Source: a virus (taxonomy: Duplodnaviria; Heunggongvirae; Uroviricota; Caudoviricetes). Taken from it: 64,000 nt of DNA. How positions within the stretch are numbered: the first letter of the stretch is position 1; each line of letters opens with the position of its first letter. The position numbers were made by a program, and so were the translations under genes. Where the stretch lies: the IMG/VR virus record IMGVR_UViG_2706794662_000007. One strand, written 5' to 3'. The notes below the pieces were generated by a model, which worked only from the letters and a program-made list of their open reading frames with translations, made no database searches and was not told the origin of the DNA. Positions 13,142 through 14,755 of the stretch are shown in pieces.

Positions 13142-14755
13142 TTATCCATCGTCATCCAGTCCAGTATTGGCGCNNNNNNNNNNNNNNNNNNNNNNNNNNN
13201 NNNNNNNNNNNNNNNNNNNNNNNNNNNNNNNNNNNNNNNNNNNNNNNNNNNNNNNNNNNNNNNNNNNNNNNNNNNNNNNNNNNNNNNNNNNNNNNNNNNN
13301 NNNNNNNNNNNNNNNNNNNNNNNNNNNNNNNNNNNNNNNNNNNNNNNNNNNNNNNNNNNNNNNNNNNNNNNNNNNNNNNNNNNNNNNNNNNNNNNNNNNN
13401 NNNNNNNNNNNNNNNNNNNNNNNNNNNNCCAGATCGGCGTTAATATAGGCCAGAAGATCCCCACGTCCGGCTTGAGGCTCCAACAGCTTCTCACCAGGCT
13501 TCAATTCAGTGGCTCTGGCAACGTACTCAGCAATCAAGCGTGGGGTAGGGTAGAACTGGTGTGATTTTGTATCCGGTATTAAACCGGTAGCCACAATCGT
13601 ATTTAGCGTATGGCCGATCTCATACGGGAACTGCCAGTGCTTTTTCTCCTGCACGCCGCCAATGAAGCTCAGTGTGCGCTCAAGCTCTTCCACCTGCGAC
13701 TTCTGGAGAGCTGAATCAGAGAAGTACCATACGCCTTTGTCTTTGCTCAATCGCCCGTCACGAAGCGCAGTGCGAACCGGCACGGAGATCGTCTTCTGGA
13801 TTAACCCGAACTGCTTTGGTGCCCGTGTTTTTGGCGCAGTTCGGCATGGCGCGGGGATTGCAGCAGGCATACTGTAAGCCAGCACCTCATTCAACTTCCA
13901 GGCCACGTCAGGATGTATTTCAAAGTGAACGTTGCCGTTCTTGAACATCTTCACGCGCATCAGATTTCCATCGACGTTCATCCAGTCACCGGTCTGGCAG
14001 TCGTTTGCCCGATACGCAGCTGATAGCACCTCAGCAGTGCGGTTGATGGTAATAAATTCTTTGTGCGCGAAGAAATGAAGCAAGACACGCAGATCGTCGA
14101 TGTAGTCCTCTTTGCGATAGTTCACGCTAACGCTGTCACGCCAGAAATCAGAAATGCAGTCAGCGATTATCAGACGCTCGCTGAAACCGTTTGTCTTATT
14201 TGTCTTGTGCGCAGGACTCAGCGCCTTAAACAAGCCATACACGCGCTCAGAGAGATATTTGTGCCTGTCATTCAGCAAATTAAGCATCGTTGGTATGACC
14301 GTTTCTGCTTTGAACTCCGGTACACCAACGAACTCTTTAACCTTCATCTGATAGCCGGTTCTGTCAGTTTTGATGACTTCCTGCTTGCCCTCGATAAATA
14401 GCTCACGCCACTCGTCGCGACGGGAAGCTGGCATGATCAGCAGAACGTTAGTCATATCCGTAACCTTCCTCCAGTACTCGGCCCAAATATTCTGTTTCAC
14501 CCATTCCAGATCGACGTTATCCAGCCAGACTCGATTCAAACGTGAGCGATCTTCATCTGGTCGGTGGTTTAGTCGAAGCAGGCGATTAATCATGTTGTGG
14601 CGTTCATCGCCATAAACGAAGTCGTGTACCTGATACATGAAGGAGATCTCTTTCTCGCACTCGGCCACAATTTCGTGGATGACGTTCATTTCCTGTCGAT
14701 AGTCGATAGCAGTGTTTGAGCTGGCATCGCCCATGATGGAAAGGGCTGTATTCAT
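13142..14755 (-). CDS. large protein with C-terminal N6-adenine methyltransferase-like motif; 3-prime part masked (true stop may be 13051)
   Basis: HQFYPTPRLIAEYV...LLEPQAGRGDLL resembles AdoMet-binding motifs of amino-MTases; N-run 13174-13428 hides the catalytic region. Confidence 0.4.
   Translation of the reverse strand: MNTALSIMGDASSNTAIDYRQEMNVIHEIVAECEKEISFMYQVHDFVYGDERHNMINRLLRLNHRPDEDRSRLNRVWLDNVDLEWVKQNIWAEYWRKVTDMTNVLLIMPASRRDEWRELFIEGKQEVIKTDRTGYQMKVKEFVGVPEFKAETVIPTMLNLLNDRHKYLSERVYGLFKALSPAHKTNKTNGFSERLIIADCISDFWRDSVSVNYRKEDYIDDLRVLLHFFAHKEFITINRTAEVLSAAYRANDCQTGDWMNVDGNLMRVKMFKNGNVHFEIHPDVAWKLNEVLAYSMPAAIPAPCRTAPKTRAPKQFGLIQKTISVPVRTALRDGRLSKDKGVWYFSDSALQKSQVEELERTLSFIGGVQEKKHWQFPYEIGHTLNTIVATGLIPDTKSHQFYPTPRLIAEYVARATELKPGEKLLEPQAGRGDLLAYINADLXXXXXXXXXXXXXXXXXXXXXXXXXXXXXXXXXXXXXXXXXXXXXXXXXXXXXXXXXXXXXXXXXXXXXXXXXXXXXXXXXXXXXXANTGLDDDG

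Follow-up and report, generated by a model that had tools for sequence, protein, structure and literature searches.

A probable orphan N6-adenine DNA methyltransferase with a conserved DUF4942 module in an SSU5-like phage-plasmid

Among the described enzymes closest to the protein studied here are the monomeric gamma-class N6-adenine DNA methyltransferases M.TaqI, M.BseCI and CamA, which possess a large C-terminal DNA-recognition domain, and HsdM of the Type I systems EcoKI and EcoR124, in which an N-terminal extension precedes a TP motif and an NPPY motif. The 'TP' motif, a helix cap, has been described for TaqI/EcoKI-like adenine methylases, and methylase domains of this type are found in the P1 DarB-type polyvalent proteins of mobile elements, where they are implicated in anti-restriction (PMC5512222). 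Phages also carry solitary methylases such as phage Dam (PF05869), situated in early regions and without a cognate nuclease. Two plasmid-borne orphan adenine methylases, M.EcoGIX of a conjugative plasmid (pESBL) and M.BceJIII of Burkholderia pBCA072, are specific for single strands (PMC7736820); they act on these during replication, show relaxed or unusual substrate choice, and are thought to protect incoming DNA.

The window, i.e. the whole stretch of 64,000 nucleotides of viral DNA analysed here (IMG/VR record IMGVR_UViG_2706794662_000007), is part of an SSU5-like phage-plasmid. It contains a gene whose product is, with a probability that we put at about 0.7, a solitary (orphan) N6-adenine DNA methyltransferase of this element. 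Like M.TaqI, M.BseCI and CamA, the protein is predicted to be a monomeric gamma-class enzyme, but in place of their large C-terminal domain it has an N-terminal module of 395 aa whose fold is unrelated and unsolved, and its identity to the three is only 20-27% over about 155 residues. With HsdM it shares the N-terminal extension before the TP motif and NPPY, and HsdM of EcoR124 was the top match of the family profile among solved structures (E 4e-4), followed by M.TaqI (E 7e-4). As in the DarB-type proteins, a TaqI/EcoKI-like adenine methylase domain is carried by a mobile element. However, the resemblance to P1 DarB is confined to the YxTP...EPxAGxG motifs and was insignificant in BLASTP, and, in contrast to polyvalent proteins, there is no sign of packaging in the virion; with 561 aa and no SF2/SNF2 helicase fusion, the protein was not accepted as a DarB-like methylase-helicase. 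The solitary, early-region location without a cognate nuclease is shared with phage Dam and other phage orphan methylases, one of which lies 5 kb away, whereas phage Dam belongs to another family with a different motif organisation, is small (197 aa here) and lacks DUF4942. M.EcoGIX and M.BceJIII are likewise orphan adenine methylases borne on plasmids; the M.EcoGIX type, with a DPPY motif as opposed to NPPY here and located on a different plasmid, was set apart by motif and description.

Translation of the window revealed a long minus-strand ORF that opens at ATG 14755 and enters a run of N, in agreement with the earlier note, which had described a large protein at 13142-14755 with its remainder hidden. 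The sequence on both sides of the mask is 100% identical to that of p09EL50 (NC_018651.1), an SSU5-like phage-plasmid of E. coli O104:H4 2009EL-2050, and alignment to this plasmid showed that 255 N stand in for 236 real bases. The read-through frame is therefore displaced by a single base and yields a spurious stop at 13142, so that of the two ends given in the earlier note the start was right and the other was not. The complete gene is 1,686 nt long (1,327 visible, 236 masked real and 123 further nt) and encodes 561 aa, not 537; the true C-terminus, APILDWMTMDNYVYARGKSFTNEFEDTGITVSVYVFKRVK followed by the stop codon, is readable beyond the mask in a different frame (Table 1). The product corresponds to RefSeq WP_014962270.1, annotated as 'DUF4942 domain-containing protein'. 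Comparison with an orthologue on a plasmid of chicken E. coli gave a dN/dS of 0.09, indicating that the gene is real and under purifying selection. The gene is thus intact, already annotated and ordinary, and what is new is the corrected gene model. Further N-runs were present at 4263-4591, 6780-7032, 9353-9602, 32187-32449, 42918-43175 and 61635-61884; since mask lengths differ from those of the hidden sequences, ORFs that cross any N-run may be frame-shifted and their ends are unreliable.

Table 1. Positions of the methylase gene, its parts and other features mentioned in the text (window positions unless another sequence is named; L001, L002, L004 and L007 are comparison loci)
Feature	Position	Strand	Basis or remark
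Complete DUF4942-methyltransferase gene	13051..14755	-	Interrupted by a mask of wrong length; NC_018651.1 38176-39861
Variable N-terminal helical region, aa 1-89	14489..14755	-	Model; entropy 3.05 bits
Conserved DUF4942 core, aa 90-305	13841..14488	-	PF13708; conservation over 158 members
Variable linker, then small alpha/beta domain, aa 306-395	13571..13840	-	Model, entropy
Motif X, FYPTP, aa 401-405	13541..13555	-	Cap ('TP') of the helix that precedes the catalytic domain
Motif I, LEPQAGRG, aa 425-432	13460..13483	-	AdoMet-binding loop
Mask, hides aa 443-521	13174..13428	.	E449, D470-F471, NPPY 489-492 and H500 inside
aa 522-561 and stop codon, last methyltransferase-fold strands, conserved F545	13051..13173	-	
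Phage Dam-family N6-adenine methyltransferase, predicted, 197 aa	19632..20225	-	PF05869, E 5.4e-38
Dihydrofolate reductase gene	L001 19767-20243 = NC_018651.1 48176-48652, about window 23070-23546		
metG/apbC region	L001 1-2887 (NC_018651.1 28005-31296), about window 2900-6200		
Methylase-cluster loci	L004 6948-8207, 12221-14320; L002 11749-12936; L007 2902-3993, 7551-8333		

The element encodes DnaE, a DnaB-like helicase, a ligase, NrdAB, thymidylate synthase, dihydrofolate reductase (DHFR), RecA, RNase HI, tRNAs, RepB and tail genes, and the methylase gene sits in a long minus-strand block of DNA-metabolism genes. The Dam-like gene about which the earlier note had suspected a second DNA-modification activity is annotated 'phage N-6-adenine-methyltransferase' and matches the phage Dam family (Table 1). 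That suspicion holds as a prediction, and the element is accordingly predicted to carry two orphan adenine methylases. Just upstream of the methylase gene, three small minus-strand genes (14859-16384; 204, 93 and 189 aa) had no Pfam match; their G+C content is only 38.9%, whereas the methylase gene reaches 49.8% and the window as a whole 45.7%. An orthologue of the 204-aa product on another plasmid bears the annotation 'cysteine peptidase family C39 domain-containing protein', and these three low-G+C genes may be a cargo insertion. Just downstream, two minus-strand genes (12285-12989 and 11905-12285; 234 and 126 aa) share the single base 12285 in an ATGA-type arrangement; they belong to no Pfam family and are not kept beside the methylase in the Klebsiella and Providencia relatives. 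Elsewhere on the element, the dihydrofolate reductase gene adjoins thymidylate synthase and is called 'trimethoprim-resistant dihydrofolate reductase DfrA51' in RefSeq; it may be a phage housekeeping gene of nucleotide metabolism that carries the name of a resistance gene. The element also carries its own copies of cellular genes, which bear the annotations metG (methionyl-tRNA ligase) and apbC (Fe-S cluster carrier), and tRNA genes (Ser, Thr, Tyr, Asn) are clustered at 82.7-83.6 kb of the NC_018651.1 record.

Of 5,426 complete E. coli genomes, 242 contain the exact gene or a close orthologue, in nearly every case on a plasmid of roughly 108-115 kb. The orthologue of Salmonella phage SSU5 has 90% nucleotide identity and is annotated 'putative DNA modification methylase'; relatives also occur in related Escherichia and Klebsiella phage-plasmids, and homologues in Salmonella (YdiA of S. 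Typhi), Citrobacter, Cronobacter, Xenorhabdus, Providencia and Morganella. An exhaustive phmmer search returned 365 cluster representatives at E < 1e-30. Of the best 150, nearly all measure 500-580 aa, and their alignments extend from about residue 90 through to the C-terminus; the combination of DUF4942 and methylase is therefore an old, widespread family and not a local fusion. A scan with one genome per species gave relatives at 274 matched stretches; the best 80 of these loci belong nearly all to Gamma- and Betaproteobacteria, and a few to Alphaproteobacteria. The protein is typical of SSU5-like phage-plasmids and of many prophages, and distant members are located in early-right/nin regions of lambdoid prophages and Pseudomonas phages or on plasmids, often adjoining other orphan methylases (PF01555, PF00145, Dam). 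Phages and prophages with distant homologues were also seen to encode two or three additional orphan methylases (PF01555, PF00145) no more than a few kb away, and such early-region clusters look like methylase 'arsenals' (Table 1).

No conserved partner was identified, as no neighbour cluster recurred in more than 5 of the best 80 loci from other species, and the flanking genes differ in the SSU5-like lineages of Klebsiella and Providencia. Neither a nuclease domain in the protein nor a nuclease partner in the neighbourhoods was seen; assignment to a restriction-modification methylase (Type I, II or IIG) was rejected because no nuclease or specificity subunit is fused to the protein or present in a conserved neighbourhood. 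A scan for promoters and terminators found sites around the gene no more numerous than in shuffled sequence. Literature searches on DUF4942, on SSU5 or pHCM2 methylases and on phage-plasmid orphan methylases turned up no experimental characterisation of any member.

The location of the gene bears on what a DNA methylase would do for the element. It lies in the replication and DNA-metabolism block, beside RNase HI, exonuclease, thymidylate synthase, NrdAB and DnaE; a Dam-type methylase is already on the element, and the family is strongly conserved across the SSU5-like elements of many genera. These observations are in line with a methylase that serves mainly in epigenetic control of the life cycle of the element, for example of replication timing, packaging or the lysis-lysogeny switch, and not in protection from restriction. 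However, the same architecture recurs in unrelated prophages and plasmids that have different replication modules and neighbours, which is better explained by a portable, self-contained protective function than by regulation of a single element, and we regard mainly regulatory use as rather unlikely.

The masked residues, recovered from p09EL50, contain IVMNPPYS (aa 486-493), the kind of NPPY/DPPY motif on which the earlier note had made its proposal of a methyltransferase depend; the FYPTP that it had noticed ahead of an AdoMet-binding-like motif was also located, the latter reading LLEPQAGRG. In the complete protein the order is FYPTP (401-405), LEPQAGRG (425-432), E449 (motif II), D470-F471 (motif III), NPPY (489-492, motif IV) and F545, with H500 also in the recovered part. 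This arrangement, X-I-...-IV with a 'TP' helix cap, corresponds to the gamma order of TaqI/EcoKI-like enzymes. The motifs are nearly universal: among 254 full-length family members, NPP[YF] occurs in 250, motif I in the form [ED]PxxGxG in 248, and [FY]YPTP in 207, or 222 if any motif X of the [FY][FY]x[TS]P type is counted. The enzyme is therefore predicted to be active, and very probably is, as judged from its sequence. The domain has the Class I Rossmann-like fold of AdoMet-dependent methyltransferases and matches N6-adenine methyltransferases, and the catalytic domain (the 165 C-terminal residues) also matches several PHROG families of 1.4-3.9 kaa (E 1e-8 to 1e-19). Two classical features of the gamma class are missing, namely 1) the C-terminal target-recognition domain, as the protein stops at aa 561, 16 residues past the conserved F545, and 2) a score above the threshold of a curated model, as no Pfam or NCBIfam methyltransferase model exceeded it for this protein (Pfam N6_Mtase PF02384, 13.8 bits versus a cut-off of 20.4; Pfam MTS, 11.9 bits, below threshold). 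PADLOC matches were all to models of DNA methylases, first mad2 (1e-15) and then Type II, Type IIG and orphan methyltransferases; since they cover the catalytic domain alone and the models are generic, membership in a defence system was not accepted.

Similarities at the level of METTL5, KsgA and Erm, together with the unusually conserved N-terminal module, raise the question of whether the substrate could be RNA or protein, i.e. a conserved molecule of the host (rRNA, tRNA or a release factor, for example), with DUF4942 as a docking domain. The scores for rRNA adenine methyltransferases were below threshold throughout: RrnaAD (Erm/KsgA, PF00398) reached 12.3 bits, far under its cut-off of 24, KsgA TIGR00755 15.7 versus 171, and the Erm models 13-17 versus 320-350. 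The PADLOC matches, the best solved-structure matches (HsdM and M.TaqI), the FYPTP 'TP' cap, a hallmark of TaqI/EcoKI-like DNA adenine methylases (PMC5512222), and the grouping of the gene with further DNA methylases in the early regions of phages all argue for DNA, making an RNA or protein target improbable in our judgement.

What makes the protein interesting is its conserved DUF4942 module, for which there is no solved structure. The earlier note had found no obvious family for the N-terminal part, a view that did not survive the domain search it had proposed as a check: aa 140-295 match Pfam DUF4942 (PF13708; E 1e-19, 71.3 bits versus a gathering threshold of 25), and the whole protein (aa 1-561) matches positions 1-548 of the 548 in the profile of PHROG 6263, 'DNA methyltransferase' (E 2e-298). 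On these profile matches the protein is a member of both families. A separate predicted model of aa 1-395 (pLDDT 82.4) consists of three parts, namely 1) a variable helical N-terminus, of which residues 1-18 are predicted to be disordered, 2) an alpha/beta core (90-305), and 3) a linker with a small domain (306-395). The last unit together with the methyltransferase domain matches PHROG 9133, and aa 352-400 align weakly to the pre-catalytic region of EcoR124 HsdM. Over 158 diverse members, W95, L179, S180, H183, T185, N186, H277 and N289 of the core are invariant, and D221 (99%), R223, W258 and D262 are kept in 97-99%. Core segments 146-196 and 256-305 have an entropy of 1.4-1.55 bits, compared with 1.87 bits for the catalytic domain, whereas aa 121-145, 197-212, 232-255, 306-365 and 520-544 are hypervariable and rich in indels. 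When the N-terminal profile was used as the query, no homologues outside this full-length family were retrieved. DUF4942 also stands alone without a methyltransferase domain, in PHROG 38825 (a 299-position profile, about 300 aa) and in island proteins such as L0010/orf56 of the Shigella SRL island (PMC6980539). The solo form adjoins, for example, the YeeU/YeeV toxin-antitoxin genes of CP4-like islands.

That the module houses a second catalytic or ligand-binding activity, making the protein bifunctional, appears very improbable: the invariant H183, T185, N186, H277 and N289 and the nearly invariant D221, the HxTN loop (the sole low-confidence spot within the core, with pLDDT < 50, and predicted to be flexible as active-site loops often are) and the occurrence of DUF4942 without a methyltransferase would fit such an activity, but the module has no similarity in fold or sequence to any enzyme found, and its conserved polar residues could equally contact the DNA backbone or an orphaned base.

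For the preferred reading, an orphan DNA adenine methylase, the following mechanism may be envisaged. The C-terminal 165 residues constitute a minimal catalytic domain with a Rossmann fold, of the TaqI/EcoKI (gamma-order) type, in which LEPQAGRG, E449 and D470-F471 would bind S-adenosyl-methionine, and a flipped-out adenine would be held jointly by NPPY, the FYPTP cap and F545, with m6A as the expected product. Because the protein ends just past this fold, the usual C-terminal target-recognition domain is lacking, and the DUF4942 module with the small alpha/beta domain (aa 90-395) could replace it by binding DNA and choosing the target, the hypervariable loops being likely determinants of specificity. 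The enzyme would methylate the DNA of the element itself and, incidentally, that of the host, so that the methylated element could survive restriction when the phage enters a new host or the plasmid replicates. We hold this anti-restriction benefit less firmly than the identity as a DNA m6A methylase. Against a role in recognition, conservation is higher in the DUF4942 core than in the catalytic domain, which is unusual for a sequence-specific recognition domain, and no fold match for the module was found among solved structures, solved DNA-binding domains included. In a different reading, which we consider unlikely, the DUF4942 module is a previously unrecognised substrate-selection domain for amino-methyltransferases; it might steer the enzyme to a feature other than sequence, such as single-stranded or replicating DNA, or permit nearly indiscriminate adenine methylation. 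If this were true, mobile elements would be shielded from a broad range of restriction systems simultaneously, and a related function in DNA handling would be expected of the solo DUF4942 proteins encoded by genomic islands.

SSU5-like phage-plasmids are frequent in E. coli, Salmonella and Klebsiella, and resistance genes are known to be carried by them. DUF4942 is a large, widespread and strongly conserved domain that precedes a minimal methylase without a recognition domain of its own, in a family spanning at least 365 clusters at 50% identity. In the SSU5-like phage-plasmids, the two predicted orphan adenine methylases probably help the element to cross restriction barriers.
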